A DNA stretch of 64,000 nucleotides, from contig JAKAFY010000005.1 of assembly GCA_021817785.1 (NCBI GenBank), positions 553 through 64,552 of the forward strand. Reading direction: 5' to 3'. Shown here in pieces: positions 9,679 through 55,000 of the stretch. A model generated the notes under the pieces. That model saw only the letters and a program-made list of their open reading frames with translations. It had not been told where the DNA came from and did not search any database. The number at the start of each line of letters is the position of its first letter. Position 1 is the stretch's first letter. The stretch comes from a bacterium (GTDB taxonomy: Bacteria; Patescibacteriota; Microgenomatia; UBA10105; UBA927). The translations under genes were made by a program, and so were the position numbers.

Positions 9679-9762
9679 CTATTTTTCAGCGAATCTTCAG
9701 CGCGCTCTATGGTATGCTTTGCATAGACCGTATTGCGGGGTATACTTATATCCCTCACGCAT

Positions 9763-10876: not shown

Positions 10877-11089
10877 ATGGGACTTGACAAAGAGTTTGAA
10901 AAGGAGTTTACTGAAATAGTGAATAAACTAGCTTTGGGTTTGGGATCCATACTAAAGGCCCTGGGAGTGGGCAAGAAAGCCAGGGTAAGCCCGTTTGAAC
11001 GGGAGAGACGTTCGTATGAAGCGGATGTCCGCAAGGAGTTTCTGAAGCTTAAAGAAAAGGGATTGAGTATACCGGTGTTTACGTTATGA
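10877..11089 (+). CDS. hypothetical small protein (70 aa)
   Basis: Short ORF in an AT-rich intergenic region with a weak RBS. Contains an LALGLGS segment that recurs in a downstream fragment. Confidence 0.25.
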   Translation: MGLDKEFEKEFTEIVNKLALGLGSILKALGVGKKARVSPFERERRSYEADVRKEFLKLKEKGLSIPVFTL

Positions 11090-26920: not shown

Positions 26921-27044
26921 TTTTTTGGTATAATTCCATAGTTGGGCCTGTAGCCCTGCCCGCAATGCTTCGCATAGCGATGCAGGCGGGTTAGTTGATA
27001 TATAGGTTCATACCTACTGTATTTGTGTTGATGAAGAAATTGTT

Positions 27045-27117
27045 GGGCCTGTAGCTTAGTTGGTAGAGCGCCGCATTCGCATTGCGGAGATCAGCGGTTC
27101 GACTCCGCTCAGGTCCA
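27045..27117 (+). tRNA. tRNA-Ala (anticodon CGC)
   Basis: Canonical cloverleaf folded by hand. Acceptor GGGCCUG/CAGGUCC with the G3:U70 Ala identity pair; anticodon loop UUCGCAU; T-loop UUCGACU. CCA is not encoded. Confidence 0.85.
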
Positions 27118-27187
27118 CAACATAATTTTTAATTTTAAATTTACAATTTTCAATGAAAATTAAAAAGTGAAAATTTCAAATTTAATG

Positions 27188-27517: not shown

Positions 27518-28070
27518 AAAACCAGTTTGTCTAAATTTTTTTGTTTTGTCAATCCCTCAGTTTTTTTGACAGCAGAATACGGGTAATTTATTTCGCCAAT
27601 TATCCCGGGATGGGGGAAGGGTAAGGAATTCTTTACTGAAACAAAAACGTATAGGAAATGCGAATCAGGGATTTTGATGATATAGTTAGCATATGTTTGA
27701 AATGGTCATAAAAACACGTGTTTATGCGCACTTTTTAAAAAATAAAGAACCGATTGCTGAGCTGTACTGATATAGTCGGGGATAGTTGTGAAAACCGCTC
27801 CTTGACAGTGCTTACTAGATATCATCATAGTAATAATACTGCACCTGATGTATGGGGGTTTGGGGACACCGGGTGATTTGTCTTTGAGGCGTGTACTTAT
27901 CTACGATAAACAAAGCAAAGAATACAGTCAATACCCCTGCTTGCCCGCAAGACATTGAACTATCCTCTCATTTGTATCACTTCTTTATAGATCGATATAC
28001 AAATAAATTTCACAACCGTATCGAATCCACTGAAAACGGTTTCGCACAAATCCTGCCGCTCATCCTGCTT

Positions 28071-31000: not shown

Positions 31001-34000
31001 AACCGGATCTATCGATATCAATATTGCGCCTGTACAATGGATGGATTCTGCATTCAACTGGATCCAAAGGCAACAAATTGCCCTCACCCCGTTCCGTCCT
31101 GGAGACTATGCGCAAAAAAATACGGAAGCACAGTTGGTGTTACTCGCAACTGATCCCGCAAAGCAAAAGGCTGTATTTGCTGCACTAGATCAAACCGCTG
31201 ACTACCGCAAATTTGCAGCCTCGCTGCATGCGAGCAATGTAGATCCACATGAGGCGTACATTACCCAACAATTGACGAAATTTTATCAGAATGAAGGATA
31301 TTTACAGAATGCTGGAAAATTTGCGCCAACAACGGTTGATAACAGTAAGCAAGATTACGTCACATTGGTGATGCGGGGAGATGTGAACGTTTCGTCTGCT
31401 GTTTCGTCCATTGGGTTGGGGAAGATGGTTGGAGGCGTGTATGCAAATACGTTAACTGCGGTAGGTGATACCGTATTAAGTCCCATACTTAAACTGACCC
31501 ATCTTACTCCGACAATAAAGGTTGCAAATCTTGTAAGTGGCGGTGTGACACCCGAGGAAAATCAGACAGCAGATACGGTTGTTACCGCCTTGATAAGAAC
31601 GAATAGTGCTGCATGGGATGCGTATGTGCAGCAAAAATCCAAAGATCCGGAGTATCTCGCCTGGGCGCAGAATAATCCAAAAGATTCATCGATAGTCGCG
31701 TTTGCCAAATGGCAGTACGCGCAATCGCTGGCGCTTACCGAAAATATGAAAGCGGGCGGATATGAGTTATCGAGTGCTCAGGATCTATTTACCAAGAGTC
31801 CAACGTGGCTAACCGACGGGGTGCTTGCCGGAAAAATAAATATCGGGGACATCAAATCCATCCTTTCTGCCAGCCAGCAATCCGTGACGACCGATTTAAA
31901 CCGCAACCTGACAATACTCGAAACAAATAACACCAACCTTCCGACTTCTTCGTATCAAGCACGCCGTCAAGCTGCGTTTGCACAGTTGCAAACAAGTGTT
32001 CTGAATGCCCAGGCAGATGCATTGGTAAAGGTATATCAGGAATCGCAAAATACCCCGGAAGTACTGGCAGCCCTGCAATCTAAACTTACCGCGCAGCACA
32101 TCACGACAGACCCACTTGTCTATCAGCAGCAGCAATTGAAGGCGTACTTATTAAATCCCGATACGACGTTTTTATTGGGAAGCGGAGGCACCACAGTTGA
32201 TGTGGCAGGGATCATGGATGGAACGTACGATATGGCCGCTGCCAGCCGTGCATATAACGACCTCAATAAACGTCCGCTGGAATCGTTTGTTTTTGCCATT
32301 AATAAATTTGAAAAGGGCTCGTATTTACAAGGTCAACAGTTGTTGAGTGATCCAAATTCTTCCCTCTATGACAAAGGGAGAGCGGTTGTGATGATGACGG
32401 CAAAGCCTGTGGGCACGGTGTTAATGTTGGCCGCCCCTCCGTTGCGAGTTCTTCAAATCGGCGTGAATGCAGTGACCGCGGCAGATGTGCTTGCTATCGG
32501 CGGTGAGGCACTTGGATTTCAGATGACGGGCTCCAGCGCGGCGGATACGGCGGTAGCCTGTACATTGCGTCCTGGTATGGACGCAGCCGGATGCGCGACA
32601 AATTTTGGCATGATGGTATTTGCCGGATGGAGCACCCTTTCGTCTGTCAACGCCGTGAATTCCATAGCTGAAACGGCGATGATCAAAAGCGGACAAAATG
32701 TAGGATTTGTTGAGCGATTCATGAATTCAAACAAGCTCTTGTCTGGCTTGGTGCCTGACGGAGATAAAGCACTTATTCAGGCAGCGGCATTGCGAAATGG
32801 TGTGATACCGGCGACCGCAGACAATATCGCTGCGCTTGAATCTGCGGTTGCAAAGGCATATGCGCCGGTGGCGCACAATGCATTTGCGGAAGGAGCACGC
32901 AATGCATTAGGGACGGCGGTGTTTGGGTCTGCGGCAATTCAAGCATGTTCGCAGGAAGGCCTGAATGCAGATTGTCTTTCCCGGGCAAGTCTCGCATTTT
33001 TGTCGTTATCCCGGACGATCCTTCCTTCTCAAGTGGTTTCCAATACGAATGCACTCGCTGGGCAGACTGTCATGCGGGCAGATCAGCTCACTAATGCCGC
33101 CCTTGCAGGGCTTTCGTGTAGTGCGGCGGCGTTGGGTAAAGGAAGTCTGGATGACTGTATTACCACTGCCATGATGAGCGGGATGACGTTTGCCGGAGAA
33201 GCAGTCCAAAAGGCTCAATCCAGCTCAAACGGCCTCACGCTAAAAAATCCGTTTGCTGCCAAAGAGCTGGCAATAAAAGATTTGTCGTTGCTTGAAAATA
33301 TGAAGGCTACCGATCCGCCGATTATCATGGACGGAACACCGGTGAATTTTCTTGATCGTACGGTAGCGGCAGATTCTGTTCGCGCGCGCTTAGTGCAAGC
33401 GACGATCGAATCAAGAATCATTATCGCACAGGGAAGTGCTTTGGCGGCGGGATTTAAAACATTGCCCGCAGCAGATCAGACGATTGCGCAGCATGCGGCG
33501 GTGACAGCTGGGGATGCATGGAATAGTTTGTTTACGGATACCGGTGCGCTCCGCCCTGGAGTTGCGGATCAAGTTATGGGTGCGCGTCAGGCATTAACCA
33601 TTGCCTCATCCGAGTTAGCACGGGAAACTGCGTTACTTACCGATCCCCGAAACGGAGCGCAACAGGCGGTAGATCGGTTATTGGGGGTGAGAAGCAAAGA
33701 TGCTGCCGCATTGGCGGACTTTCATACCGCGCGTGAGGCATATCTTGAGCTTGCCCGATCCGCGGAATACGATCCGGCAACCGGAGTATTACGCAATGGA
33801 GAAACGTTGGCGATTGCCGAACAACGACTGGCCCGTGCGGGCGAGACGCTTTCGCTCGTAAACGCATCGCGTGGGGAGATATGGTATGCCACGCATCTTA
33901 ATCAAACCCGTGATGCGTTGGCAGTTATCAACCGTCAGATTGATATTGAAACGCTTCAACAGCAATTATTATTGGATCAAGCCAAACTTCCGGATGTGCG

Positions 34001-37000
34001 GCGGCTTGCCCGCGAACAGGCAGATGCTGCCCAGATACATCTTCGTACACTCGAACAGACAAATGCTTCCCCGGAGGTGCGCGCTATTGCACAGGAAGCG
34101 CTGCGTTTGGCAACCGAACGGCTGTCTGCGGCTGAAGACGTCGCAACGCATATCCAAAATCCTGCTGACATTGCGTTATACAGAACAGAACGCGCCAATG
34201 CCTTGAGCACATTACAAGCACGGGCAGAAACAATACAGGGAGAAATGACGCTGTTAGCCGCAGGACAGAAGGCGGCACAAACGTTTGGCGGCAGGCTGGC
34301 GATCGCAGTACTGGGTCTTCCTGATCAGCCGACCCCGTTTGCGGAATTGATTGGCAGAACTCCCGAGCAGATCGTACAAGCCCGGACCACGGCGATTACT
34401 GAAGTAGGCAAGCGGTCGCTTTCCAATATCGAAGATCTTGTTAATGAAACGATTGATGTGATGCGCGCTTCCAGTGATGGGACGATAACGCGGGAACGGG
34501 CGATAGAAATCGCCATGGATGAATTGTCTGCTACTGATGCGAAAGGAAATACAAAGATCTATACTGATGCGCTCGCTCAGGCCAAGGAAGCATTAATGAA
34601 GCAGGGGATCACCAATGAAACAACCCTTGCCCGGGAATCCATGCGCATAGCCAGAACTGTTGCGGATCAGTTTGTCGCAAACAATGAGGCTATCCGCGCC
34701 GCACTGGCAAAAGGAGAAAGCCCTGATGTCGCGTTTGCCATCAGGCAGAGTACGGCGAGTAAAGTATCGACTGCGATCGTAAATTTTATAGAACAAAATA
34801 CCGTCGGCCGCATAAAGGTATACCAGATCCGTCAGGAAAATAAGGCCATGCTCTCCCAGCTTCGGGTTGCGCTCAAAGCCGAATACAAACCTTTGGTAGA
34901 AAAATTGGCAAATATCAATAATGACCGGGGTGGCATATCACTGTCGCAGGAAACCAAACCCGGCGCGAATGATGCATTGATCGCTTATGATACGCATAAA
35001 AGTGTAAAGCCCGGAAAATTAGTCGTCGATGACATCAAACTGACGGATACCGGAAGAAAAGCAGGACTGACCGAAAAGGATGTCACCTTCCTCAAAGATA
35101 ACCTTCAATCGATCCAGGGCGTTCAGGGATATACCGCCCATACGGAGCAAGTGGATTATATCCTGGCGTTTTTGGAATCTCTGGGAGACGGAAACGCCCG
35201 CCGTATATACGGCGCCGTCATGGGACTCGGGAAAACCGATTTCGTCATGCCGGCAACCACATTACTTCAGGCACAACTATCGGATCAGACGCAGGTGATC
35301 GTATTTCCGGAAGACAAACTCATGAACCAATACCTGGGCGGGAACTCACAAAAAATGCTGGATTTGTTTAAAGCAAAAATTGATCCCAAGGGGGAGGGGT
35401 TGGTGCTGGTGGTAGATCCGTCCAAGCCGCCGTCCGCTGAAGCCATCGCCAAGGCAAAAGTGATCATTACCACGCGTGATATCGCGTTTCTTCTGGATGC
35501 AACCGATGCATCAGGGCTTGCGATGCGCGCCAAATGGCGCGGGGCGTTTATCCAGTCGGATGAGGGACACTGGACGCTCAATGCGACGGAAAGCTTCCGG
35601 ACGAGTTTTGGAAAACAAACACAGATCATGCAGACGGATTCCGGTAAGATGAAACGCGTAGCCATAGCCAGTGTCGAACAATTACAAAGCGTCAGAGAAC
35701 TGATTGATCTTGCGAAAACGGGAAAACTGACGGACGCCGAGGTCAGGCGGAACGCGGATAAAACAGGAAGTTTTACGGACCCGACTGAGCAGGAAATTCT
35801 CCGTGAGTGGTTGCAGAAGAAAAAGAACGCAGGGCAGCTGCCCCCAGCCTTAGAGGCGGCATTGCAGGCGGGTTCCGTTGCGGATATGCGGGCAAAGATA
35901 ACGGAATTTTTTGATACCAACGCGTCTGCCCGCACCGGTCCGTTGGGAGCGGAGATTTCTGTAATCGGCAAGCTTGCAGATTTGTTTGCTGCAACCCCCA
36001 AGGTAGAGTATGGGGCTGCGTCGTTTGATAGAAACGGTACGTTGGTTGATATGATTGCGCCGCTGGATATGACAAAGGCAACCGGCCGCATGTACCAGGG
36101 GGAATTGGAACAATTACTGTACAACACCATCGGCGCGGAGATCGTCGGAAAGAATATAGATCTCACTAATCTTGTGTCAAATAGCCAAAGCCGGGACATA
36201 AACTTCGGGCTGCTTATGTTGGAAGCCAGCGGGTTTGCTATCTACACCGGTACTCCGGAGCTTATAGCGCCTTTGTATAAAAGTGCATATGGCATTGATC
36301 TGACGCAGTATGGATTAAACGCACATGAGGTGGTAACCAAACAAATAAATACGGGACTGGCGTCACAACAATCTCAGGTGTTTCAATCAACCGACGATGC
36401 ACTGACAAACAGACTCCATAAAGGAGAGCCGGTCGCAATAGTAAATCTCCGTGATACGCTCTACCGCACGAATGAATCCGCGTTTGAGACGATACAGCGT
36501 CATCTCGATACGGGTGATCGGCTGTATGTTGCGAAAGCCGCCGGGGGATTTGAAGAATATGTCCGTCTTGCGGATGGCTCTATGCAGAGGGTAGCAGTGT
36601 ATACGGATAAAACCGGGATAAATGCGAGTATCGCTAACCATATAACAGAGCCGATTGTCGTAATGTATGAATTCGGGGCACATACGGGTGTAGACGTGAG
36701 TCTGCCCGACAATACTCGGGAACTGGTGTTGACGGACACGAACTCCCGCATCAATGAAACCGTGTTTGATCAGGGGGTCAAACGCGTACGTCCGGATACT
36801 GCGTTAGTTGATGTCGTGCATGTGGGTGGAGACGGGACAATTGAGTCGGTGTATAGACAGTTAGATGTTCAACAACGGCAGGACATGGCGCTTGCGGAAG
36901 TGCAATTTAAAGAGACGCTGCTTCGCAATTCCGTCGATCAATTATTGTCCCGCTTGAATGCCGTACAAACGACAACTGCAGGCGGTATCACCCAGGGAGT

Positions 37001-40000
37001 GGATTATGCGGCACGTCTGAAAGCGCTGCAAGATCAATGGCAGGTAACGAAAGATCTTTCCTACGATTTGTCGACGCATAATATATCCGCACAAGATAAA
37101 TTACAGCGAACACTGGATCAAGTGAAGTCGATGTATGGGGAAATCTACGCGTCCATACAAAGCGACGTAACACTACGTGCCGCTTTTGCCGTATCCGCCG
37201 GGGATACAAAAGATCTTGCAATTAATTTACAACCGGATCCGAAAGGAGTGCATAAGCTTTCAGCGGTGTCGTCGCTTGCGGATGTGGTAACGTATATCAA
37301 CAAAAGTACCGACCCCAAGGTTATTGCCGATGCGGGGGTGACGTTCACCGAACGGGGGCCGTCTGCTGAAGCGGTGACGGCAGATGCACGCAATGTGCAG
37401 CCGACCAACATCATCGCAGATGGCGACGCAATAACTGCTGAAACGATAGCCGCGGAAAACCAAGCCCGTCAGGATGCGTTGGCTAAAAATTCCGGCAACG
37501 GAAATAATCCGACGTTGCCGGGCTCCGGCCCACAGACCCCCGGCGGTAGCGGCCCTGTACAGCCCGGTGGTGCGGGAGGTGGGCCGGCAAATAATGGTGG
37601 CGGTGGTACGACAAACACTGGCGGTGGGGGCGGGACAACACAATCAAACGGTGGTGGTTCCACACAAAATACCGGCTCAGTCAATACTGGTTCGAATACA
37701 ACCGGTCCGACGACCGTGTCGCAGATGACGTCGCAAGCACGGCAGGCAGTCATACGCGCTGCTGTAGACACATCGGGTACACAACCCGTGGTGCGTGCAG
37801 GTATTTCTCCGCAGCAAACGCTTCAAGCACTCGCTGCTGCAACGATTGAGGCGCAAAATCTTCGGAATAATCCATTTTCCCGCATACGAATATTACCGAT
37901 TGCCCGAACACTTGAGAGGCAGGAACAAGCGGAACTTGCCTTGGCGGATGCGCTTCAAGGGCCGGTACAAGCGGCGATTGAACAGGAACTTGGGGTAACA
38001 CTTTCGGGAAGCGGATTGCCCGCCATCGCGTCTGCCCGGGATAGTGCCGTAAGTTATTTGGCGGCGCTTGCTATAGGAGATGCTGATGTCGCGCAATCCC
38101 ATCTGACCGATTTAAACAAAGCAATTGAAAATGTGGCTGCAGCACAAGGGTCGGCATATACAGGGAGGCAAACTGCGGACATAGCGCCGCATATTGTTGC
38201 TGCATTTCTGCCGCCATCTGCAGTGACAGCGAAACCCATAATTCAAACCATATCAGGGCAAATCAATACGAATACGGTATCAAATCCGTCGACATGGAGA
38301 GCCACCATAGGAATTATGTGGTCGGGGATCAAACACTACGGCTTTAACCCGAATCCATTAACGCTGTTTACGATATTCGGCAGCACAACAAATCGCTGGG
38401 ATGTATTGGGACAGGTGGGGGGGTGGATAATGTTCCGTATCGCCCCGCTCTTTGTACCCGGTGGTCAGTTTGTCGCCGTACCGCTTTTGGCGTATGACGG
38501 TGTCCGATTGATAACTTATCCGTTCCGTGCGTTGGCCCGATTTATATTCACGCGTCCGATGATTCGGGATATTGTAATTGGGAAGTCCGTCGCCCAATTA
38601 GCACTCCGATGGCATCTGAATCAGACAATGCTCAATATTTTGGCGGGGAGCCGGAACGGATTTTTTGAAAGCTATGTCAACGCCGTTCCCGGTTGGCCGA
38701 AAGGGACGACATTTTTCAAGGGATTGATTGGGACATTTACGTGGGCGAGTCGTTTTCAGGCAATGTGGGGATACGATGCATTCCGGTTATTGCGGCGGTA
38801 TACGCAGCAGATCAATCATATCGCTGATACCGATATGCCACTTCACCAACTGCCGGTGACCCAGCCGAATTATTGGGACACAAACGGATTCCTACTGGGG
38901 TTTGTCCCCCGGGCACTGGTGAATGCAACCCCACGGAATAATCTTTTTGGATATTTATTGACCCGATGGCTCGTACCCATCGTTATCACGTCTCTTGTAG
39001 CGCCTCTATTAATGTTGATACCGGTCGTAGGTCCGTACATTGCCGTCATGGTGGTTGCCATCATTATTTCCATGCCGCATTCATATGATTCCCATAGGTT
39101 GTGGCATGAGGGAGGATGGCAACATGCCGATATCTGGAATACAAAAAAAGGTCATATTACTCCATGGGCATCGTGGGGCGCGACCGTGACGATTACCGTG
39201 CCCGCGCCGCAACAGTTTTCGAAGGGAGTATTGGAAGCAGGACACACGTTGGTTCGCGGGGCAACGATAACGGTTACCCGTCGGGACGGAAGCGTGGAAA
39301 CCGCAATACTGGATACCGTATCCAATGATCGTATCGCAGCAAATAATTCCTGGACCATCCGGTCTGCTGCAGATAATTCCGTCATTGGCTGGGTAACACA
39401 AGGAGATATTACGGTAAATATGTCACCCGCCATAGCATCACAGCCCGTTGTCCCAATACCGTCAGGAGGTCTGAGCGCTGCTGATATCGACGCATTTGCG
39501 GAAGCGCTCACGGGTCCACAGGTTCAAACCTTGTTCCAGCGTGAAATCGCATTTCTCCCGTTAGGCTGTTCGGAGTGTACTGATTTCGTAAAACAGAGCA
39601 TAAATACACATCTTGCTGCTGCGCAGCAAAAGATTGTGGCTGGAGATCTGGCGGGTGCGATTGCTCAACTGGATCAAGCGCTTCATGAGATAGATATGCA
39701 TGTCAAAAATCACACCGGCGGTCCGGTAAATACGATGCTCTTTAATCTGGTGCGCTATGTTATATTGCGTCACCAGGCTGCGTTGTATACCGCTCTCGGT
39801 GATACAAAACATGCAGCCGATGTCATGGCAATAGCCCGTTCGTACCGCGTAAAAGCGCTTATTGAAATAGATACTAAAATCCATGCGTATAACGCAGGAG
39901 ATACGCGGTTTGAAGCGATCAATGACGCACTTTCGTACTATACCGCGCAACGGGAAAAAGATTTCAGTGACATTCTTTTGATGCAGGACGCAAACCAAGC

Positions 40001-43000
40001 TCAGCAAGCGCTTGATGATCTGACGGCGGAGATTTCAAACAGACCGACGAACCCGACCTTGTGGGATCGTGTTACGGCCATGGCTGCGCGGATTCTTGTC
40101 AAACAGCCGGATCCGCTTGCCGGATATGCCACTGAAATTGCGAATGCAAACGCACATATAGCTGCTCGTCGAAATCCTCCGGTACGTCACGAAGCCAGAG
40201 TGGGGGATACGTATCGGTTTGCCCCGAGCGCGTACCCAGCAAACGTCAACGCATTAACGGGTGCTTCCATCGGAGGAGACACGACAAGTAAAATTTTGAT
40301 TCCGGGCCTGGGTCTCGGACTCTATGCATCCTTTGACAATGGCCGTTGGCAATTACATCACCAAGATCGTTTTAAATCGGGCGTCTTTATAAATACAACA
40401 CCGGTCCCTGTAAATAAGCAAGGGCCATTATCCTCTGGTGATACGATCGTCATCGGGGACGTGCGGCTTGTGGTGACTATAGATAGCGACAATAGCCTGA
40501 TGATTCATATCGAACAGCTTGTTTCCGGCCAGCCGGCGCAACACCCGGTTGTTCATAAAAATGACACACAGCATTTTGCCGCAAACGATTTTACAACACC
40601 CGACCAGGTTGTGACGCTGGGAATCAATATCTACTCGACAATCCGGTTTGATCCTGGTCAGGCACCAAGTATCCAACCGCATCATGCGCATGTCTTCAGA
40701 AATTCCGGTTCATGGATTATTACATCTGCGGATACACAGGCTACCGGCACTATCCGACGACCTGATGGTTCTGAATATCCATTACAAGGTCTCACGGGAT
40801 TGCATGACGGCGACATCCTATACCTTGGAAGCGACGTCGTCATAACGGTGAACGTTGACCCGACAACTCATGACCTCACCTTACTTGAAACGACCATAGG
40901 CGATAGCGTCGAGGTGGCACGGAATAAGACAGAAGCGCGTGCGAAGCTTCAGGCGATTATTGATCTTGGAAAGAATCCTGCAGGCTACGACAACGCGAAA
41001 TTATCAGCGTATGTTTCCGATCTGCAGACGGTTGCCGATGGGCTTGCACAGGCGGATCAGGCCGTATTTGGCACAAATACCACCGCATTATCCGGACAGT
41101 TGCATCAGGCGGCGCTTGAGCTCGGGCAGCTTGTCGTCGGGTATCATACACGCGTGTACAACAACAACGCTCCGTTCTTTGATTTTAGCCGGGTGCAGCA
41201 GATGGAAGATGATGTGAATACCATTCCGGAGCTTACGAAGGAAGAAAAAGCGCAGGTGTGGGACGGTTTCGAAAAGACGGTGTATCGGGATTATATCGGA
41301 TCGGTGTACGGCTCGATTGCCGGGATGGAAACCGAAATGTATGGTTCTTCACACTCGCTCCCGCCGTCGGACCTCGATAGCATGTCTCTGGCGGATTTAC
41401 AGAGAGAAAAAACAATGGCGGAAGGGACTTTTGCGGTGACAAACGACGCATATAAAGAATTTTTACGGGATAAGAATCGTTTTGAAACGAATCGGAAAGC
41501 GATACAGGCAAAAGCCCGGGCAATGGCGGACGCAATGAACACGGCGTTTGCTAAAGGTCAGATGACGAAAAATATTCGTGTAGAAGTAAGCCAGGAAGGA
41601 ATAATTCAACTTATTCCAGCTGATAATAGCCCGCTATTAAGTCTTCGAATTGGACTAGACACTCCGCAGGAATATATATCAGATCAAAGAGATGATGGGG
41701 CGGTTCATATAATTTTAGGGACAACCGGATTATCGGTGGCACCAGCAATACTCAATATTGAGTCAAGAAATGTGGGGTCTGGTGTCGGAAATGAAGCGTT
41801 GTCGATCATAGAAACGGTTGTTAAACGTGCAGGATTCGGTGGGATGTTGGTGCAGGGGAATACATCAGTATTGTCGTTTGGTTTTTGGTCAACAAACGAA
41901 TATTGGGTGGCGGATACAAAGCAAAATTTGGATGAGTTGCAACGGTATAGCCGTGCACGTCAAATGTACAAAATATTCGGTAAAGCATTACCGAAGCCAA
42001 CACAAGAAGTATCACGACGTGAGCAGATTAATCGATTACAGGCACAAATCTTTGGATGGTTGGCGCTGGCTCGTAGTATTAATATGTCATCCGACGAATT
42101 ACGTACGAGCATGTCTCCGGATGATTTACAAAAGTTGGTAATTGGAAAGACCAATATCTATATCGCGGGAGCGCTGGTTCCCGACGGTCTGCCGTTGGCA
42201 TGGCAGGAGCCGATTATTCTAGCGCTCACCGATCTTGAAGCCGGCGTGCCGCCGCTGGGCATGTACGATACCTCTGTACGCGTCCTGAACCGTCCGGAGG
42301 TCCATAATGCGCTCATCCAGCTTATTGGAGCAATCAAAGCCCAAACCGATGGCGGCGGCGAATATCTGAAAGCACTTGGGGAGGCAATCGTTGCCGGCGC
42401 CAACAATCCGAAAGAGATGGCAAAATTGCTGAATAACCTTACTTCGTATTGGACTACCCCTGCGAAAATACTGAAAGACTCGTCGTTGCCCGGGCGGCAG
42501 CAATTTATCGACACCTATGGGCCCGTCATCGCCAAAGGCGAGTCAGGCAATCAGTTTGCGGATGCGCTCTATACACATTACAGTGCATTGAAAAGCGAAG
42601 AGCAGGATGCTCTCGCGGCGTTATTCGCGGATGATGGAACAATGCGTACGCCGGTTGCGCACGCAATACAAACGCTGAAGCCATCGTATGCCCAAAAACG
42701 AAGGGAAGATAGCCTGACGGTGGCTGCGCGCGACGCGTTGTTGCCGGAGATCAAAACGCTTCATGCGTTCACCTTTCTGTCCGACGATGAAATAAAGAAC
42801 GAGATACCGACGGACATCACGAATCAGGTGGTCGAGGGTGCGTACGTCATGGATACGAACGTGAGCGGGGAGTTAAGCGCGCTTGCGCCGCAGCAGCAGG
42901 CTGTGGTGCGCAACGGTTTCGATGTGCGCGCGGATATCGTACGCGACGCGTGGGCAAAAAGCGATATCAGCCCGTTCGGCGCACTTTTTGATACGAATGT

Positions 43001-46000
43001 GCTGTTTAGCTCCTTGGTGTCGCAAATAGCCGATCTGCACGAGGCAGATGCCGTCAGTCAGTTCCGTGCGGCACTGTCTGCATTCCCATCGGATTTGTAC
43101 GCATCGATGAGGGCACGGGATACCGTGAATAAACCGGATGCGTATCAAATACAAGCTGAAATACATGCGAAGTACGTCGCCGCGACAATACGGGGGAAAA
43201 TAAGTAGTTCGTTCCCGATGCAAGAGCAAAGATTGTTGGCGTTTTTGAACAACGGATTACTTGAAAACAACAATCATCCCCCGTTCCCCAATTTGGAATC
43301 GTTATTGAAGTATCTGCTGATCGGTGACGTGCCGTCGGATCAACAATTCGACGAAGCGTCATTACGGGAGCGCGTTGCCTCCATGGATACCGGAGTGACG
43401 GGCCCGCTTATGGATACGCTTGCCAAAGCGATACAACAGATGCTTCCTCTTCTTGACGGGATTGTTGCCCGTTCCGAGCCGCTGCCCGCCGTAAATATAG
43501 CGCCGGGTACGACCACCACGACGCATGTCGCGTTGCTCCGTGCGATGCATGACTATAACGACAATGCGCCGCGTTCGATGCGGTTTACGCCGGCATCCGA
43601 TTTTACCCTCCGGCCGATAGAAGATCAGGTGAACGAGTTTCTGACGTTTGTCGAAAACCGCACAGGTCAGTGGACGCGTCAAACCTCCCCACGGGAGGGG
43701 AAAGTGGGGGTAGCAAATACGTTTAATGGAATGACGTTCGCTGAAGGGAAGGCCCCGTTAATCATCGGCACGAGTAAATCGAATACGATTTGGTTTGATT
43801 CAGCCGTCGCAAAATCGGTAGCAGAGAAGCACGCGGAGATATATTTGGAACTTCATTCGGATAGTCCAAACAAGCTTTGGATTCGGGCTGTAAGCGACAC
43901 TACCCCGATTACCATTTTCGATCATCGTGGTGAGAAACTACGGACTCAATCTGGTGCTGTACTCGGAGATGGATATACGATACAACTCGGATCAGACGTT
44001 GTACTTTCCGTAAAATATGACAATTATTCATATCAGTTCACTCTCACCCCGACGAAAGTAGGGGAGGCGATTACTGCGGATGCCCTTGACCAACTGCTTG
44101 CCAAATTGATCCCCGGGTATGACACGCAGAAGCTGCCGCCGGAACAGGTTACGGCGATCCGTAAGGCCGTCTACGGCTTGGTACCGGCAGGAGCCGCAGC
44201 AGAAAGCCTGGATGCCGCGCTCAAACAGCCCGCGGTGCAGGAATTCTTAACCACACTGCAGACGAATATCAATGCGCTGACCAAAGCGCAGCTTCCCAAT
44301 GTGCAGGCGATTATCGGTAATGTCCAGACGGACTATCAGACCGTCCTTGCCCGTCTACCGATATTTATCCGAGTGTTGGGGTCTGTAAATATTGCGGATG
44401 TGAACAATGTGACTATTGCACTGACTTCTATGAACGCTGCCATACAGGTTGCGGAAACAAATCCACAATTATCTGCTTTAGCGGTGGCATCGTCGGACCG
44501 GAACAGTTTTGTGGAGGATCAATCGGTCATAAATTTGCTTCGGGGAATCATTTTGAATGCCTTTGGTACCCACGCTATCATCGTTTCAGAGCTATCTCCG
44601 GATACGTATAGCTCTCTTGTTACCTCGCTAGGGGAATATGTTTGGTCACTTGCGGTTAAAACGCCATCTCTTGATGGATTTTGGGATGCTGATAGAGGTG
44701 CAATCCTTATACAAAAAGCATTAGACGAAAAAGATAATCGGACACCAGTATTACCGGAATTTGTTGAGCTCACCAATCAGGCAGTTGGATCAGATAAAGT
44801 GCTTTATATGGAAGTATATGCGGAAGAAATTTTGACGAATCGCGAAATTTTGTATTTTTTGGATTTGGCACGAACCAGAATCCTCGCACAGCAACAAAAA
44901 TTAGAAAAGTATAACGCAGATTGGAGACGCCTACAGCTTGCCGCAGAGCAGGATCCAGCTATCAAAATTGGCAAAGAATTAGAAAAATTATATCCGTTAG
45001 AGTCGAACGCTCTCATGATGCAGTCAGCGGGTGGATCACTTCAGCTTGACGAAGCCAATAGGGCTATTTCGTATATCACCGGCGTACCGATTGAAGAGGT
45101 GCAAAAAGGGAATTACCCAAAGGGTACAAAGCCGGATTTGACGCCGGAGGTGATACGTTCACGGCTCGTTGCTCACGGCGATTATGATCATGTTTTGAGT
45201 GAAACTGAAATAGGAAGACTGATGATAGCCGAGGATGAGAAAGATCATTACGATATCATGCGTACCCGTACACCGAGGTTTGCGCCGGTTGGCGGTACAT
45301 TAGATCAAAATCCGCTGGTAAATTTGCTGTTTGGACTCACCGGCAAACGGTACCGTATCCCCGCGGATAATGCGGCACTGACGGAGGAGGATGTCGTCGT
45401 CGCATTCGAGCGGAATTACGATTTTCTCGTGCAGGATTACGCTCTTCCGACACTCATTTCATCAAGTGGAAAGCCGGATGTATATTTCAATGCGCTGATG
45501 GTGGTCGCGCAAGAGAACGGAGTAGAAGTAAAACTTGTTTCCGACCCCTCGAATCCTCAACCGCAGGCCCGGGGTCTGTTCCATGGCACGCCAACAAATA
45601 AAACGATCTATATTCCGACATTGGATAGTAATTCCAACAGGGAATTAGCGCATGAATTGGTCCATGCGCTGCAGTTTATTAAACATCCCGGCATGTCCAG
45701 ACTCATGCGCGAATTTGAGGCATATCTGATATCGGATTATCCGAAAAATAGAGTACCAAAAGTCGGATATCTGAGGAAATTTTTGCAGATTATTGCGGAC
45801 ACTGTCGGTCCAACATATGTTGCCGTAGGACAGCCGATTCCGTGGGAATTTCAGCCGGTTGATGTTTCCAATAGTGCACCGGAGGGATCGGATATATCGA
45901 CGCCAGTTGCTCTTGACCAACTACTTGCAAAGCTGATTCCGGGGTATGACAAACTGAAGAAAGATCAACAGACTGCGGTTCGGAAAACGATATATGGGCT

Positions 46001-49000
46001 CGTTCCGGGAATTAGTTTTGGAGAAAACATAGATGATGCATTGCAGCAACCCGCGGTGCAGGAATTCTTAACCACGCTGCAGACAAATATAGGCGCATTG
46101 ACCAAAGCACAGCTTCCGAACGTGCAGGAGATCATCGGCAATGTCCAGACGGACTATCAGACCGTCCTTGCCCGTCTGCCGATTTACGCCCTGGTAATGA
46201 GTTCGGCGAATGTGACGGATGTCCCGAAAGCCCTTATTGCGGCACAGAAAGCGATCGATGAAGTCGAGCATAGCCCACATCTTTCCGTTGGAGCGCAAAC
46301 CGCGGCGAGCGCCAGCGTGTTTACAGACGATATGAAATTTTCAGTGACGGAGAATGTAATGCGTGCATCTCTTGGATCTCAAGGGTATACGGGGACAGCA
46401 GAAGATATTGCATTGATACATCAGCAGTATGGTATCTCAGACGACGAGTTGAATACGCTGATAACCGCTTTGTGGACGTATGTATGGAATAGAGAGAGTC
46501 GAGAAATCCAAATTCGTGATCAGTTGAATAGCATCCTTTCGGATGCCAGTCCGGAATTTAAGGCATTACCTGAATTTGAACGCGACGACATTATCGAAGC
46601 ACTGCGTATTTCTTACCCCGATAATACAACACTTGCCGCGGTCGCGACTGATTTTTCCGAATCCGGCAAACGGGCGAAAGAGTTGCATGCGTTAGTGACC
46701 TTGTTGGCACAAAAGACGTCGATAAACGATTATGTGTTAACCAGTATTATGTTGCATACGCCTCAAAATCCGGAAACATGGAGCACGTTGTACGATACAT
46801 CGATAAAGGTCAGCGCACTCCTAGAACAGGTTTCGGAATCCAATAGACAGGACCAGTCGAAACAAGCGTATCAAGTATTATTGCAGGCGATCAAATTGAT
46901 CGGGAATGATCAGACAGTCTGGTCAGTGATGCAGCGTGAAGCCGATCGTTTTATAAACGTCATCGCTATTTTAGCTGCAAAGCGTTCGGGGGGCATTACT
47001 CCCAAAGATGCACAAGCGCTGTATACTGCTCTGCGTATTCCGGTCGCGCAAAAAACGAAATATGATGGTTTATTAAATAAATCGGATTTGTCAGTACTGG
47101 GCGCTCCTGAAGCGGATTCGAAGTGGGCGGCATTTGATGCATTAGCGGTTGTGTACTTCCGCAAGGTTCCCGAAGCTCCATCCGAAGACCCACGTGTGCA
47201 GGAAATTCGCGGGCTATATGGAAGATTTGTACGATCATTATCGACGGTGCAGGGAGTGTACGTGATAAAAATGTCCAGTGAATGGGCAGCTGTTTTAAGT
47301 CTTTTGAAAGGCGGGTCTATTGTTTATGTTCCGAACGGAGCGTTGGATACAAAGTTTGAGCCGAAGGCTGTTGTCGATGCCGCAACGTTCCAATCCGGAA
47401 TTCGTGAAGCGGTGGATTACATGAATTTTCCTTCCAAAGAAGCGTATGCGAGAGCAAAAATAACCGTATGGATATTGGACAAAATGTTGTCCGTGGAGCA
47501 GTATTATGCGTCGAAGAATACGTTGAGTGTGCTGCAACAAAAAAGCGGAGAACTTGGCCAGATTGATCAACAAATAAGTGCGTTGTTGCGGACCGATCTT
47601 AGCTCTGGCACGACGCAGGAATCTTTGCAGCAGATATATGCCGCCTTGTACGCACTTCTGCCGGCAGATAGTGGTTTTCCGGCCGATGATACGAGTGAAA
47701 TAGACGCATTAATAAGCAGCATAAATACTTTTGGACAACCGAAAGAAGTCCGTCAGGTTGTCACTCATCTTGCGACAACATTCGGCATTCCGGATGAACA
47801 GATCAAACAGGTTGTCGATCAGGTGGTGGCTAATCTTAAGGATTCCACGGCTGCCGGTACGGTTCCGGCCTGGAAAGCGATAGAGGATGCGCTGAATGCA
47901 AAGCCGAAGTTTGCGAAAGACGTTTTACCGCTTATAAAGAATCAATTCGCAGCGCTTCAGAAGGCGCAAGCGGACGTATCCCGAATACAGGCGTTACTCA
48001 CTATCTACGCCCGGACGCTCATCTCCATCCCGCTCGGGAAGATAGCTGAAGCGCCAACGGTCTTATCGCAGGAACAGAAAGCGATTGCAGCGCTGGAAGA
48101 ATCAAGTTCCGGGTGGGTGTCGGATGCGACGACTATCGATGAATTCCTCGCGGACAATACACGTACCGGTACCACCAACGAAGTCCGCATTCAAACAGGC
48201 CTCAAAGATACCAAGATTCTCCAGCCGAAAGATGACAAAACCCCGAATGCGTTCGGCATAAGTCTCACAAATTACACGCGTATCGTTTCCGATATAGGGC
48301 AGTATTTGTGGAAGAAGGGGGAGGATGTCCGCACGAAAGCGATTCTTGCGATGGTAGAACCATATGATGCCCAGCGCGATGCGTCATACATCTCACGAAT
48401 CGAACAAGCGGCAAAAACGAACGGATTGCAGATTAAAGTAGTTGGATATATAGCAAAAGGAGCGCAAGGATATGTTTATTTAGTGCAACTATTAAATGCA
48501 AAACAAGTCAACATACCCGAATATGTAGCAGCTAAAGCCGACGATTTGGCACAAAAGCTAGGTGTAAATGATGCGCCGCATGAGTATGAGCTTGCCGGAA
48601 AATTACGGCAGGCAGAACAAACCGGCGAATTCGACATCAGCGACCCCTCGAAATTATATACAGTTGATCCATATGCAGTTGACGCAAAGAATAAAGTGCT
48701 ATTTGAGGAGCTGGTTCTAACGCAAAAATGGGATGATGAAAGTCAAGACGCGAAGATTTCCCGCGCAATGCAATTTGGTCATCGTACGTATTTAGTTCGT
48801 CAAGCTGGTTTCTATAATCAGGATAAGATCGGTGATTATCTGGCGGATATTAACAATAAACTTCATTTCTTTGATTCATCTTCGTATGGTACAAATCCGA
48901 AACTAGCGTTAGATGCAAATAGCCGGTTTATTACGCGCATTGTTGAAGCGCTCTATCCCGCCTCCGGTGCGACCGTAGAAAACATTTTTAGCGCACAATT

Positions 49001-52000
49001 CACAAATGATACCAATAGGTTAAATGTATTGTTGCAATCCCGACTTTTTGTTTCTCTACCGAAGATTATTCAGTACAACATACTTCTATTACTCGGAAAA
49101 ATATCAAGCAACTCGGGTCAGAATCTAAATAGTGCCGCAGCATTTAAAGAATTATTACTGGACATGCTTTCAGTTACGGCGAATAACCACATAGACAGTA
49201 AATTCATACCTGCTGAGTTGCATGGTGAATATCAGCAACAAGCGATCATTCACCGATTTTCTCGATTCGATAATGAAAATATTCTTGGTATGGCTGGAAT
49301 CACGATTGAGCAGGGGGCAAATGCGGAAGATAAATTATTAATATCGAATATCGTTCAAAGCCCTTCGCTTAATTTGATCTATTCATGGCATGATTTTAAT
49401 GTTGGAGTACCATACGAAAAATATTATGCTGGAATATTTATCAATCTGACGACACAAGAAAAAATAGATCACATTATTGGACTTGATCTTTCGCAATTTG
49501 ATCTGTCTCCAGAGGATTATGCTGTCATGCGCGTCATCCAATGGCACGCACAATATGTGAGGTATGGGTTTATGATGACTGGTCATCCTGATGTGAATAA
49601 TGCTTCAGCGATGAATCCATCGGAAAGCGCAGTGGCGCAACAACTCCGCACGTACGGCGTCATTAAAGTTCTTAAAAAGATGGGATCTCGAATGGAATTA
49701 GAGGCTGCACAAGGCCACCAACAGGCGGTTGATAAAGAATTATTGCCCTCCATGCGGGCATTCCAGGATGCCTTCGTTCAAAATATTTTTGGAGGGGATA
49801 AGCGCAAATTGAATAAACAGGATTTTCCGCTTACGCCCGAGCAGGTGAAGAAGGATATCGATAGTTATGTGCCAAACACAGCCAATACCGTTTCTACCCA
49901 ACTTACCGCGCTTATTTCCGATGCCACGCCGCTTAAAACCGATGAGCAGAAGGCGCAGATCAAAGCCGTGGTGGATGCGACTCTTGCCGAAATGGATGCC
50001 GTCACATTGCCCCAGGATATCTCGGCCCTGAAACCGGCAATCAGTGTGATCTACGGCGACGGCACGTCTTTGGTTCAACTTCCGGATTTCCTGAAACGCT
50101 TGCCGGTATTCATCCGTGAGCTTGTAGCAGCAACTCCTAAAGAGATGGAAAAATTATTGATCGGAACCAATACTGCAGTCACCGCGATGAAAAATTTTCC
50201 GATTGGTTTTAATAACCCGGCCGGAACGACAGAGGATGCATTCGTCAAAGACGTAAAGAATCGAACGTTTGTCCGGGATATGCTGGTAGACGGACATCTG
50301 TATCCTGCAAATTATTCCGGCATACCGATTACAGATGCCATTATTGAGCAAATACATACAGATTATGGCCTCACATCAACAGAATTCGACGGCGTTGTAA
50401 CGGCGATTCTTCACTATCTCTACACACCGACGGAGGAGGGTGGAACGGAAAGTATTCTTGGCGCGTCGCTTATTAGTCAATTTGGTATTACGGCTGATGC
50501 GGATAAACAAGCTGTTCAGAACTCTTTACGTGATGGCCTTACCGGCGTGACGCTTTCCGGGCCATTGGTTACTGCACTTTCGGATCCAAAGAGTGCGCCG
50601 TCTCAATTTACCGGAACAGTTATCAAAGAGCTTCGTGCAGACGGCGCCACAGCCCCGGCTATATCACGCATTTTGCCCACGATATTGTGGGTCTACGATC
50701 ATGCGGCCGCCGACAAAAAGCCGCTCGTGGCAACTACCCTGATCCCAAAAATTAATGAGGTTGATGCCGCAAACGCGATTATGTGGAAAACGTTTGTGGA
50801 TGGAAACGCAACCGAGCAGTATTTCATTGATACAGGAAGTGTTGTGGTAGGTACGTCCTTTGACACGGTTCTATCTTCGTTATTGCCCGATCAGGCGGCA
50901 GATGCACACTCAAAAGTGGTAAACGCCTATTTGCGGTACGCTCGGATCAAACACGGATCACGGGTGACGACGGAATTACAGTCATTTTTGGGTTATGTAA
51001 CACAACCGGAACATGTCCCGATGCCGCCCACCGCTCCCCAGGTATTTAAAGATATGCAAAAAACGGTGGAGGAATCCCCGTCACAAACAACAGCATATGA
51101 AGTGCAGGCAATAAACCAGCTTGCTTCGTTATACCGGACTGACCTGACGGTGAAGCGTACAGGTGGCGCGGAGGGGAAAGCACCTATGGTAGAAGTAAAC
51201 GGGAAGGAGCTTCTTCCGATTGCCGGACATATGTATCGGTACATTTATAAGCTTGATGATACACATGTGTTGAAGTTTGATATGGGAGGGCAAAATGAGA
51301 GTGAATTGGAACTAGAGGCACTAAATGATAATGTCCGGGCCGTATCCCCGATACTCGGATGGGGGATTGCATCGGATGGTTCGGTATTTCTTATAGAAGA
51401 ATATAGCGATGTCGTGATAAGTCAGTCTGACAATACCCAGCTTCGTGGTGATATACAGGGAATTATTGAATTATGGAATAGTGCGTACGTGAACAGTTCC
51501 GTAGCAGAACAGCAGGCCTTTTTGCATGAATATGGATTGCAAAGCGCAGATGAAATCAATCAGCTCGAGCAGATTGTGAAGGTAGACGAACAGATACATC
51601 TTGATGATTTTGCCATGGCTTCCCAAAATAAGCCTGAATCCGGGCAAATCGGACGCGGGCGGATAAGCCATAGATTGCAGCTCATAGATTTCGGACAAAA
51701 TAGCGTTCGGTCAGGCTATGCTCCCTATCTGCGGAGCTTCACCCATCTCCAGGAGATAGTGGACAAAATTGTAGCGGACAGAAAATCCGGCTCCGTCGGC
51801 GGGGAGGTCTCTGCGTTGGCGACACAGGCGTGGGATGCAAAAAACGAAGCGTGGGTAGATGCTGCCATAGAAGCTCTATCGCATGAAGGGTTTACCGACT
51901 GGAACGGGCTTCTTGTCTCATATTTTAGAGCGTATCGTGGTCCCAAAGATGAAATGCTGACTCCAAAACAGGTGGAGGATGCAGTAAATCATTACGAGCC

Positions 52001-55000
52001 TACATTTTTAATCTCCATACTCCTGAAGGCGGATCGAAATCAGGAAGTGGTTGACCCGCTATTTGCCGATCTAACGCGACAGATACGACTCTTACTCCCG
52101 TTTGATAAAGAGCCTGATGTACAACTTGCTACCATGCGCATGGTTCTTACGATTCTTCATGGAATCAAAGCCGGGGCGTTTCCGGCAGAGACGCTTGTGC
52201 GGTTTATCGGTGAAGCGGACGCCAATGTAAGTGGCGCATTCCGTGTGTTTGCATCATCCATCAAACAGCCTTCCGTACAGAACGTATTCATGCAGATGTC
52301 TGATGTAGTGGATGAGGCAAGTTCATTCCAGGATGAAATCACCATGCAAATGGCCATGTTATTTGAAATTGTTCGGTCAGGGGATATAGCGCATCTGCCC
52401 AAAGTGGCCACTACATTGCCCTCTGTATTGCAAAAATATCAGACGCGCACAGCAGGAGTGCCCATCGGTGATAACGCAGTAGGCTATGGCGCTGCCATGA
52501 CAAAAATACACACCCAGTTTGGACCAGATACTTTGAGGATGCGGGATGCGTCGCTTGAAATCATGCTCGTTCAAACCAATGAAAAGAAAGAGCGATTGGA
52601 AAACATTATCGATGACATGATCCGCGAATTGGGAGTACAGTCGAATAACCCATCGCAGCGGAAGCGGTATCAGCAGTTGTTCGTGAATATTTTGAGTTTT
52701 ATGTCGAGAAGTGATCAGCGAGCTACAAACCGTTTGAGCGCGAAAATAGCGCACGAAGTTGAGTTGCTTGACCATGCGTTAAACGATACAGTCGAGTCGC
52801 AAAAGATACTTGCGGAGATCGCAGTAGATGCGAAACCATTGCTTCCAACATTGTTTGCTACTCCTGCAGGAAGATCAGAAGTACGGGAAGCAGTGATACA
52901 ACAAACGGTTGATACAGTATTGCGCCGAAGGCTTCCGCTTGCCGCGTCGGATGATGAGGCAACGAAAAAAAATCCAACATATCCCCGATATACATCTGCG
53001 TTGAGAGAGTGGCACAACGCCGCATTGTTGTATATAGAGCATCAACATGGGGCTCCATCAGAAGCTATCGCAGTGCTACATGCGTTTCGGGATGCGGCGC
53101 ATGCAAATATCACAAATCCTCGGGATCGAGCACTTCGATTGATTCGGGAAGCGTATACAAAACGAAATAGTGACCCGGTCATATCTAGTGCCTTGACGCC
53201 GAAAGAACAGGATTTGTTGTTTGGTCATTATCTTTATTATTTATTTAACCAACAGGATCGTATCGCACAGTTCCCGACACTCGATAACGTAATAGGCAGA
53301 GATAATCTGGCGTTTGTGGGGAGTGTACGGAGAGATGATACTACCCAAGCAAACGCATTGGCTGCCAAACTCAAAACATCGCCTCTATTGTTGCAGCTTG
53401 ATAAAGATTTGGGCCCGATCGTCGCGGAATTGCAGGCAATAAAAAGTGCCGACACGACGTCGATATATGCCAACATAAAGTTTGGAATGGAGCAGCACTT
53501 TTCCATGACGGAGCGGTATGACCTCATTGTAAACCTGCTTGATTCGGATCAAGCGATATTTGATACGGCGATCAAATGGTTTACCGATAAAGGATTTGCT
53601 CATGTGAAGGAAGATTTCGGGACATGGGATGGCGGTGGAAGTAGTACGACAAACGCATCAGGTCATTTGGCACAGAATGCTGCTCCGGCGGCAAATGATA
53701 TCAACGCGCAAATTGCGAAGTTTGTGGGTGATATACAGGCCGCAGGGTACCCCGCAAACTATCCCGTGGTACTAAATGGAGTAGTACAGGATAAGTCCGT
53801 TGTTTTGAAGATTGATGTTTCTCGATTACAAGCTCAGCTAGAAAAGATAAGTACGGCGGCCAATCAAAGCTTTGATATTACGATTTCGTTAGGGAATGCT
53901 GAGGTGCTATTTGGAAGTATTGCTCGGTCAGGCGGCGTTACACGAATCAATCCCTACGATCGAAGTGGCGCGCGTACGATATCAAATGTAAGATTCGTGC
54001 TCCGACAACATATACAGTCTTTAGATCTTGCTCTTCGTGATAAGGCGAATGTGGATTTAGCTGTACTCAATAAGGTTTTATACGGTTTTCTTAGTAGTCA
54101 GACCGGCCCGACGGTGACGTTGACGCAGGACCAAGTTCTCCAGCTTATCGATGCCATGCGAAGCGAAATGAATCTTCAGGATGTGCCGGGACCTGTTAAA
54201 TTCGCCCTCGGAGCAGTCGGAATAAACGACAAAAGCATGGCGGCGATGACGATTGAGCCGAAGTTTTCAAACGGTATATGGAGTGTCGCAATACAGTTGG
54301 CAAAATTTAGCTTTACCGCTGAAATTCATACGAGCCAGACATCCGATCAGGGGTTTGAGATAGCGGGCTTACCCGGCGCGCTCACGCGTTTTGTGACGCC
54401 GGCAGAGATGATGCGAAGCATAAACAAACGACTGGCCAGGCACGGCGTTTCACGTCCCATTTCAAAACTTGATATTCAAAAGGATGGGAGTATCGTCGCC
54501 ACGTTTGAAGGGCAACAATCACAGATCCCTCGAGCACAGGGACAAGTACGGACCGGATTTGCCATATCGCTTGGCGTGGCTGCAGCGTATATCCTCAAAA
54601 TTCCGGTTGTGTTGACGGCGGCACACGCGGTACAGTCCATACTTATCGCTGCTGGGCATATCACTATTCCGATTTATTCATGGTTCCCGGATATGCAGCA
54701 TCAGATTTCCGCACTGTTCCAACCAGTGACGCTCCAATACGCTCTTTCTCTCGTAGGTATATCGGGAGCACGACCAGCTCCGTCGAAGGTTCCTGACATA
54801 CTCTCCGGTCCGACGCATACGATGTCTATGGCGGATAAACGCCAGATGCTTTCGCTTATCCCGCAGGGATTCCTCCAGGCGATCGTGACGCAGGTGTTGC
54901 GGAAACCGGGAGCGACATTTGCCAATTTCCGTGCCACGGTAGATCGGTATCGCTTTGTGACCGTGATGTTTGATGACCATCGCCCTGGGTTTGCCGCGTT

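Follow-up and report, generated by a model that had tools for sequence, protein, structure and literature searches.

Divergent FHA-family modules with a substituted phosphothreonine pocket in a predicted giant protein of a Candidatus Gottesmanbacteria bacterium

Not every FHA (forkhead-associated) domain reads phosphothreonine: the cytoplasmic domain of YscD/EscD (PF16697, Yop-YscD_cpl) is a phosphothreonine-blind FHA domain of a membrane machine. In Rad53 FHA1 the phosphate is contacted by Arg70, Ser85 and Thr106 (PMC2615620), and the tandem N-terminal FHA domains of the membrane protein EssC do without the residues for phosphothreonine recognition (PMC4925161). Large and giant bacterial proteins have been reported to combine transmembrane (TM) regions with divergent SecA-DEAD helicase domains (10.1101/2023.11.21.568195). 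The text of that paper makes no mention of FHA and does not name the Candidate Phyla Radiation (CPR) or Gottesmanbacteria among the phyla rich in giant genes; 'Candidate Phyla Radiation' occurs in it once and 'CPR' twice, all confined to its introduction and reference list (10.1101/2023.11.21.568195). Here we analyze three FHA-like segments of a bacterial DNA stretch of 64,000 nucleotides (contig JAKAFY010000005.1 of assembly GCA_021817785.1; the window, hereafter), all of them contained in one giant gene that runs past its end. We favor, with a probability of roughly 60%, the reading that segments 2 and 3, together with a probably truncated segment 1, are divergent FHA-fold modules with a phospho-independent docking or scaffolding role in a giant membrane-anchored protein.

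The three segments belong to a single open reading frame (ORF). A stop-to-stop scan of the + strand yielded one stop-free frame from nucleotide 27888 to the window end (63998), at least 12,037 codons long, and a three-frame translation placed all three segments in it, including every peptide quoted for them in the first-pass annotation. Within the window the ORF occupies 27891..63998 on the + strand, with a likely GTG start at 27891; in other assemblies the gene is called from the ATG at 28071 as a single product of 13,064 residues, so that the complete gene has some 13,064-13,124 codons (~39 kb), with ~1,090 C-terminal residues beyond the window end. Four assemblies were found to encode the exact upstream M23-peptidase protein, on contigs of 46-107 kb. 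Three assemblies (ENA ERZ27237541, ENA ERZ27237554 and NCBI GCA_027341155.1) call the downstream gene whole, at 13,064 residues, and in the fourth (GCA_021842445.1) it is shortened to 5,952 residues. A fragment from an independent ENA assembly, P0001, corresponds to residues 4657-10125 with one mismatch. Because of the whole call in three assemblies and of this matching independent fragment, we conclude that the gene is real and reproducibly assembled, its uninterrupted frame encoding a product well above 10,000 residues. This product has zero Pfam matches on record. We rejected the idea that the three segments are separate small genes, since no in-frame stop interrupts the 36 kb and other assemblies call the gene whole, and also that an alternative genetic code lay behind the absence of the ORF from the first ORF listing, as the ORF merely runs off the window.

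Among the 24,736 Pfam families compared, FHA (PF00498; gathering score 20.7 bits) is the best one for each of the three segments. Segment 1 (residues 4127-4198, nucleotides 40266-40481, + strand) scores 16.7 bits (E 0.01), with a match that covers only model positions 29-67 (nucleotides 40338-40457); what is recognizable of it is the C-terminal half, including the GD-x-I-x-IG hairpin. Segment 2 (residues 4236-4325, nucleotides 40593-40862, + strand) scores 14.6 bits (E 0.046), and segment 3 (residues 5285-5380, nucleotides 43740-44027, + strand) 19.7 bits (E 0.0012) over model positions 2-67. Scored jointly, in a chunk spanning residues 4001-5000, segments 1 and 2 give an FHA match of 22.7 bits (E 1.4e-4), over the cut-off. 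The Yop-YscD model (PF16697), which had been proposed alongside FHA, matches no segment even at E<=10.

Profile comparisons with relatives carry the assignment further. These relatives were reached through Rho and through an alignment of the N-terminal region (A1), not through the FHA region, and most of their loci end just short of the collinear FHA region or have none. Two metagenome loci reached by the A1 alignment, L081 and L083, carry canonical FHA domains (ORF residues 4807-4878, 50.6 bits, and 4255-4326, 54.8 bits, respectively) that keep the full GR / SRxH / SxNGT signature, and the L083 domain matches the solved FHA domains of ArnA (5a8i) and Rv0020c (3po8) with E values of 1e-6 to 1e-5. 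When a profile is made from nothing but the three window segments, it finds the FHA domain of L083 (26.6 bits). Reciprocally, a profile made only from canonical domains picks, within 12,037 residues, exactly residues 4260-4317 (segment 2) and 5289-5370 (segment 3). In hhalign, the alignment of window segments only (A2) matches that of canonical FHA domains (A4) with 95.5% probability (E 1.6e-8); taken alone, segment 3 does so with 93% (E 3e-7) and segment 2 with 86% (E 5e-6). There is thus profile-level homology to bona fide FHA domains, and segments 2 and 3 are, judging from their sequences, divergent members of the FHA family. Segment 1 alone gives 4.6% (E 0.009), with only the C-terminal hairpin aligned, and is undetected by the profile of segments 2 and 3: it is a marginal case, plausible at best as a partial or eroded FHA copy. 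Of the three FHA segments initially read by eye, two are therefore supported and the first stays plausible. Outside the FHA core, we found no similarity between the window modules and the FHA-bearing regions of the relatives.

The residues that should grip the phosphate tell a different story from those that make the fold. In segment 2, G-I stands for GR, Q-P-H-H for SRxH and Q-A-T-G-T for SxNGT; in segment 3 the same positions read G-T, A-E-K-H and S-D-T-T-P. The alignments translate this into R to I/T, S to Q/A, and T-N to A-T/D-T, the last pair corresponding to Thr106 and its neighbor in Rad53 FHA1, Asn107. Segment 1 has a Gly at the Arg position (G-G), and its remaining pocket positions are unalignable. 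No window segment hence conserves the phosphate contacts of a phosphothreonine reader, all of which are retained in L081 and L083, and the label of phosphothreonine-binding modules given in the first-pass annotation is not supported. The S/T-x-N/T-G-T-like turn is mutated at its key Asn in both segments 2 and 3, and the H-A-x-[IV] motif announced for all three is found in segment 2 (HHAHV) and segment 3 (KHAEI) and missing from segment 1. Fold-defining hydrophobic and Gly/Asp positions, for their part, survive in segments 2 and 3, which share the Gly, TIxFD, His-Ala, W-I, LxDGxxxxLGSDVV and the V-x-V-D end, and keep the equivalent of the structural His88. The heptapeptide GDILYLG of segment 2 is identical in the canonical FHA domain of L083. 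Unlike the canonical domains, segment 3 carries six inserted residues in its beta4-beta5 region. Given the loss of the residues that grip phosphothreonine, sensing of this mark is improbable, and the sequences suggest that the window modules probably serve in docking or as scaffold instead of as phospho-sensors.

The similarity between segments 2 and 3 extends past the FHA core. In a blastp self-comparison, residues 4242-4411 and 5291-5451 are paralogous (29% identity over ~170 residues, E 2e-8), which implies that both segments are copies of one module, made of a putative beta domain and ~80 residues predicted to be helical. The helical extension that follows segment 2 lies at 40863..41120 (+ strand, to residue 4411), where helices are predicted with low confidence, and its paralogue after segment 3 at 44028..44240 (+ strand, to residue 5451). 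A recent internal duplication also involves the latter region: residues 5399-5499 (44082-44384) and 6008-6106 (45909-46205) are 75% identical at the protein level and 72% at the DNA level, with the motif 'ALDQLLAKLIPGYD ... QPAVQEFLTTLQTNI.ALTKAQLPNVQ.IIGNVQTDYQTVLARLPI', and a more distant third copy is found at residues ~7373-7512. The first copy adjoins segment 3 on its C-terminal side and includes the distal part of its helical extension.

We built structure models from window sequences only, and their confidence is low to medium because no deep alignment could be obtained. The AlphaFold2 model of the segment 3 module (predicted local distance difference test, pLDDT, of 60.3) is an all-beta domain of nine strands followed by four helices, and the FHA domains of KIF1A, kanadaptin and CHK2 come first when Foldseek compares it with the PDB (probability 0.95-0.99). 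The 11-strand sandwich that had been expected compares with nine strands in this one model of medium confidence. Neither a lack of FHA hidden Markov model (HMM) matches nor a predicted fold other than a beta-sandwich was encountered.

According to the favored reading, FHA beta-sandwich modules would be built into a long section between two membrane-spanning clusters of a ~13,100-residue protein; they are homologous to the canonical FHA domains of related Gottesmanbacteria giant proteins that have the N-terminal region in common. The Arg, Ser and Thr/Asn that hold the phosphate have been replaced and the residues that determine the fold remain, and it is this combination that makes us propose phospho-independent protein-protein docking or scaffolding, possibly with oligomerization through the helical segment that follows each module. 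The function would be akin to that of the EssC and YscD FHA domains, which are blind to phosphothreonine, or to that of the CC1-FHA unit of KIF1A.

A very different possibility, put forward in the first-pass annotation, is that working phosphothreonine-binding FHA modules form, together with kinase- and phosphatase-like parts of the same protein, a self-contained Ser/Thr phospho-signaling unit. The FHA homology is real, and the canonical domains of related giants suggest that phospho-recognition is probably within the biology of the family; in one relative, L087, SpoIIE/PP2C is matched weakly (E 0.039), and Ser/Thr phosphatase domains have been reported in other bacterial giant proteins (10.1101/2023.11.21.568195). 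We searched for the enzymatic partners in the window part of the protein and in the 27 kb upstream of the gene, the last ~1,090 residues and the remaining genome being outside our view. No Pkinase, PP2C or SpoIIE match was found in any 1000-residue chunk of the protein (Pfam, E<=0.1), and there are no kinase or PP2C genes among those of the upstream 27 kb. Motifs reminiscent of these enzymes can be read by eye: kinase-like ones at residues ~7770-7960 (VLKF, HLDD...N, IDFGQ) and PP2C-like ones at residues ~9720-9990 (ADGV...GG, VGDA, DDLSV), both unverified and with neither HMM nor PDB support. Searched as separate pieces, they match no Pfam kinase or phosphatase family at E<=1, and the three by-eye pieces compared with PDB sequences gave no relevant match. 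With the phosphate contacts all substituted in segments 2 and 3, segment 1 barely recognizable, and neither kinase nor PP2C in the protein chunks, the by-eye pieces or the upstream genes, the kinase-like motifs invoked downstream have found no backing and we consider such a signaling unit unlikely.

Two other motifs were noticed in the same manner, both unverified: an alpha/beta-hydrolase GHSTG, with only sub-threshold serine-hydrolase matches (E 0.13-0.15), and a transglutaminase-like C...H...D, with no Pfam transglutaminase match at E<=1. Altogether, the stretches read by eye for kinase-, PP2C-, hydrolase- and transglutaminase-like motifs are 51200-51770, 48375-48917, 56985-57872, 58335-59147 and 59145-59567.

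The modules could also be decaying relics of ancestral canonical FHA domains, that drift neutrally in a fast-evolving mosaic region and act as spacers at most. Their functional residues are lost, and segment 1 resembles a half-eroded copy. Moreover, a phmmer search with residues 4190-5389 against 1.84 billion representatives returned, apart from a fragment of the protein itself, only three short fragments (residues ~4540-4880), and the visible parts of the relatives' giant ORFs contain no detectable orthologue of the region either. This absence indicates very fast turnover. A word-indexed protein search with the FHA region, the N-terminal region or alignment A1 including the relatives yielded no homologue, in an index that may miss very long proteins, and back-translated pattern scans of genome and metagenome contigs with the FHA region gave no match. 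However, segments 2 and 3, at 29-31% identity, still retain an unbroken frame and the pattern that determines the fold, which argues for selection on the fold, and several assemblies contain the 39-kb gene intact over its whole length. We hold neutral decay to be rather improbable on balance. Very improbable, and largely refuted for segments 2 and 3, is that the FHA resemblance arose by chance in a very long protein whose folds are unknown, a concern that applies mainly to segment 1: FHA comes up as the top family three times among 24,736 models, the reciprocal profile matches land exactly on segments 2 and 3, the hhalign E value of 1.6e-8 is hardly compatible with chance, and FHA is the fold that Foldseek ranks first for the model of segment 3.

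Several observations weigh, nonetheless, against divergent FHA modules with a docking role, and some of them are those on which chance resemblance would rely. Each segment taken singly is under the curated Pfam cut-off, and no FHA chain came up in PDB sequence searches, whether with segment 3 or with the profile of all three segments. The Foldseek matches of the segment 3 module have E values of only 0.04-0.08 and TM-scores of 0.24-0.38, and the single-sequence AlphaFold2 model of segments 1 and 2 (residues 4110-4420; pLDDT 44.7) is too poor and gave zero FHA matches in Foldseek. The matches that this model did give, to SOD, DnaK and DDB1, we discarded as meaningless for the same reason. No close orthologues of the FHA region, from which purifying selection could be gauged, were found. 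The loss of the canonical residues is no proof of lost phosphopeptide binding, since other side chains could substitute for them, and a kinase could be encoded in the ~1,090 C-terminal residues or in the remaining genome. Finally, the topology described below is based on hydropathy and cysteine distribution only.

The architecture of the rest of the protein is consistent with membrane anchoring. An N-terminal hydrophobic anchor (28050..28106, + strand, residues 55-73; Kyte-Doolittle peak 2.63) is followed by a Pro/Thr-rich region that is also rich in cysteine pairs. As many as 41 of 47 cysteines fall in residues 19-1757, 40 of them in residues 96-1757 (28173-33160), where they form closely spaced pairs such as 96/107, 140/151, 270/273/283/287, 1558/1569, 1687/1696 and 1744/1757; the remaining ~10,300 residues hold six in total. 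These paired cysteines, six of which are invariant among relatives in the N-terminal region, suggest that residues 96-1757 may form a disulfide-bonded ectodomain, to which a long cytoplasmic body would be attached. Further on come P-loop and DEAD-like helicase motifs (GLGKT ... SDEGH; 35142..35570, + strand, residues ~2419-2561), for which Pfam gives only ResIII at E 0.095. In L081 the motifs follow the same order, and both DEAD (28.6 bits) and ResIII (24.2 bits) exceed their cut-offs. The motifs recall the divergent DEAD helicases of other giant bacterial proteins; no match to the SecA_DEAD HMM was obtained. A low-complexity linker rich in Gly, Asn and Thr (37488-37700, residues ~3201-3270; GNGNNPTLPGSGPQTPGGSGPVQPGGAGGGPANNGGGGTTNTGGGGGTTQSNGGGS...) separates this helicase-bearing part from a membrane-associated cluster (residues ~3480-3740) conserved in L081-L088. 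The cluster ends in a strong hydrophobic hairpin (38940..39068, + strand, residues 3685-3727; Kyte-Doolittle peaks 1.7-2.6), located ~400 residues upstream of segment 1. A second strong hydrophobic stretch, with room for two helices by Kyte-Doolittle hydropathy, lies at 54552..54686 (+ strand, residues 8889-8933). The ~5,150-residue section comprised between both holds the FHA-like modules and only two cysteines (residues 3894 and 3897). We infer that it is cytoplasmic, given that FHA, the DEAD-like ATPase and a weak methyltransferase motif are all cytoplasmic activities.

The latter is a class-I S-adenosylmethionine methyltransferase motif, LKPGGFIVVDN, at 63585-63710 (residues ~11900-11941), with 21.1 bits for Methyltransf_11, against a cut-off of 21.2, and E 1.8e-4 for Methyltransf_31. 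The protein also contains two paralogous HExxH modules (residues 5913-5999, 45624-45884, and 10927-11017, 60666-60938; 29% identity, E ~3e-5), whose motifs, HELVHALQ and HELIHAIQ, look zincin-like by eye, and neither of which has a Pfam match. No adhesion or carbohydrate-degrading domains were detected in the protein, a difference from the published giant proteins (10.1101/2023.11.21.568195).

The Rho protein encoded in the window is 75-86% identical to that of Candidatus Gottesmanbacteria metagenome-assembled genomes (MAGs), which places the organism in the Candidate Phyla Radiation (Microgenomates). The window is chromosomal, as it carries the end of a 23S rRNA, a 5S rRNA and two tRNA-Ala genes, along with genes for an S1-domain protein, a RadA-like protein, Rho, glycosyltransferases and an M23/LysM peptidase. 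A transfer-messenger RNA called by ARAGORN at 26944-27118 overlaps tRNA-Ala(CGC) (27045-27118) and is probably an artifact, with Rfam at its gathering threshold reporting two tRNAs only.

Giant ORFs are found downstream of rho in many related MAGs, and similar ones in metagenome contigs. At the genome loci of the relatives they sit directly downstream of rho, as in the window. Their similarity to the window protein starts at its residues 2-22 and is limited, at 28-33% identity, to the first ~2,200 residues and to the membrane cluster at residues ~3340-3780. In a further Gottesmanbacteria genome (RIFCSPLOWO2_01_FULL_43_11b; locus L022, 12726-21119) an ORF of >2,798 residues occupies the same place after rho and shows no tblastn similarity (E<=1e-3) to the window giant; this may mean that the giant gene has been replaced, or has diverged extremely, at a locus that is itself conserved. 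The distal parts differ in content: matches to HopA1 (PF17914, a type III effector family) exceed the cut-off of 22.7 bits in L082 (~20005-20287, 26.9 bits) and in L086 (~19607-20149, 24.0 bits). Together with the lack of similarity outside the FHA core, these HopA1-like modules point to a fast-changing mosaic in the distal part of the family.

One can go further and imagine a family, specific to CPR, of giant mosaic proteins that span the membrane and bear a helicase, with a place conserved across Gottesmanbacteria (after rho, the M23 peptidase and tRNA-Ala) and with reshuffled distal modules of the interaction or effector type, in which FHA domains switch between phospho-dependent and phospho-independent docking. 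We give little credence to this picture at present. If it were true, the distal modules (FHA, HopA1-like, HExxH, transglutaminase-like, hydrolase and methyltransferase) would be rapidly reshuffled and could serve episymbiotic interaction with a host cell. The change from phospho-dependent docking in L081 and L083 to phospho-independent docking in the window would then amount to a lineage-specific re-targeting of host or self partners.

Whatever the fate of that idea, the modules are among the very few handles on a protein of ~13,000 residues that has no detectable homologue for most of its length, and whose gene takes ~39 kb; contigs of related MAGs in this lineage measure only ~1.0-1.2 Mb. 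The canonical domains of the relatives and the degenerate ones of the window constitute a natural experiment on the conversion of a reader into a scaffold. As defined and expressible pieces of 100 residues, the modules also offer an entry to the biochemistry of CPR giant proteins.

It is in comparison with known systems that the position of these modules becomes clearest. The FHA call is correct but ordinary, and EssC and YscD have already provided examples of FHA domains that lack a phosphothreonine pocket. With canonical FHA domains (PF00498; Rv0020c/FhaA 3po8, Sulfolobus ArnA 5a8i, and those of L081 and L083) the window modules share length and strand pattern, and they keep the GR-loop Gly, the His-Ala pair within SxxH-A and the hairpin L-x-x-GD-x-[IL]-x-LG. 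They differ in scoring 15-20 bits singly, versus 50-55, and in the replacement of Arg, Ser and Thr/Asn. The tandem FHA domains of EssC-N, from type VIIb secretion, likewise have the fold and not the phosphothreonine residues (PMC4925161), and their arrangement recalls segments 1 and 2. As in EssC and YscD, the FHA domains of the window are attached to a large membrane-embedded protein that contains an ATPase, with a presumed structural or docking role. Unlike them, the window segments are not N-terminal, lying ~4,100-5,400 residues into the protein, and there is no FtsK-type ATPase, the scan of 1000-residue chunks having detected no secretion-ATPase domain in the giant. The architecture is unrelated, PF16697 is weak in the canonical domains of the relatives as well (E 0.005-0.035), and the likeness to EssC and YscD would be one of function only. 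Like the window modules, KIF1A (CC1-FHA; 4ejq, 4egx) and kanadaptin (4h87) have helical or coiled-coil segments attached to an FHA domain. These are eukaryotic proteins at 10-15% identity, and the resemblance of the segment 3 module model to them is one of fold only. On the scale of the whole protein, the closest counterparts are the giants described by West-Roberts et al. in 2023 (10.1101/2023.11.21.568195): like them, though in a different phylum, the window protein is nearly unannotatable by HMMs, exceeds 10,000 residues, carries hydrophobic membrane segments and a DEAD-like P-loop region, and comes from an ultra-small bacterium.

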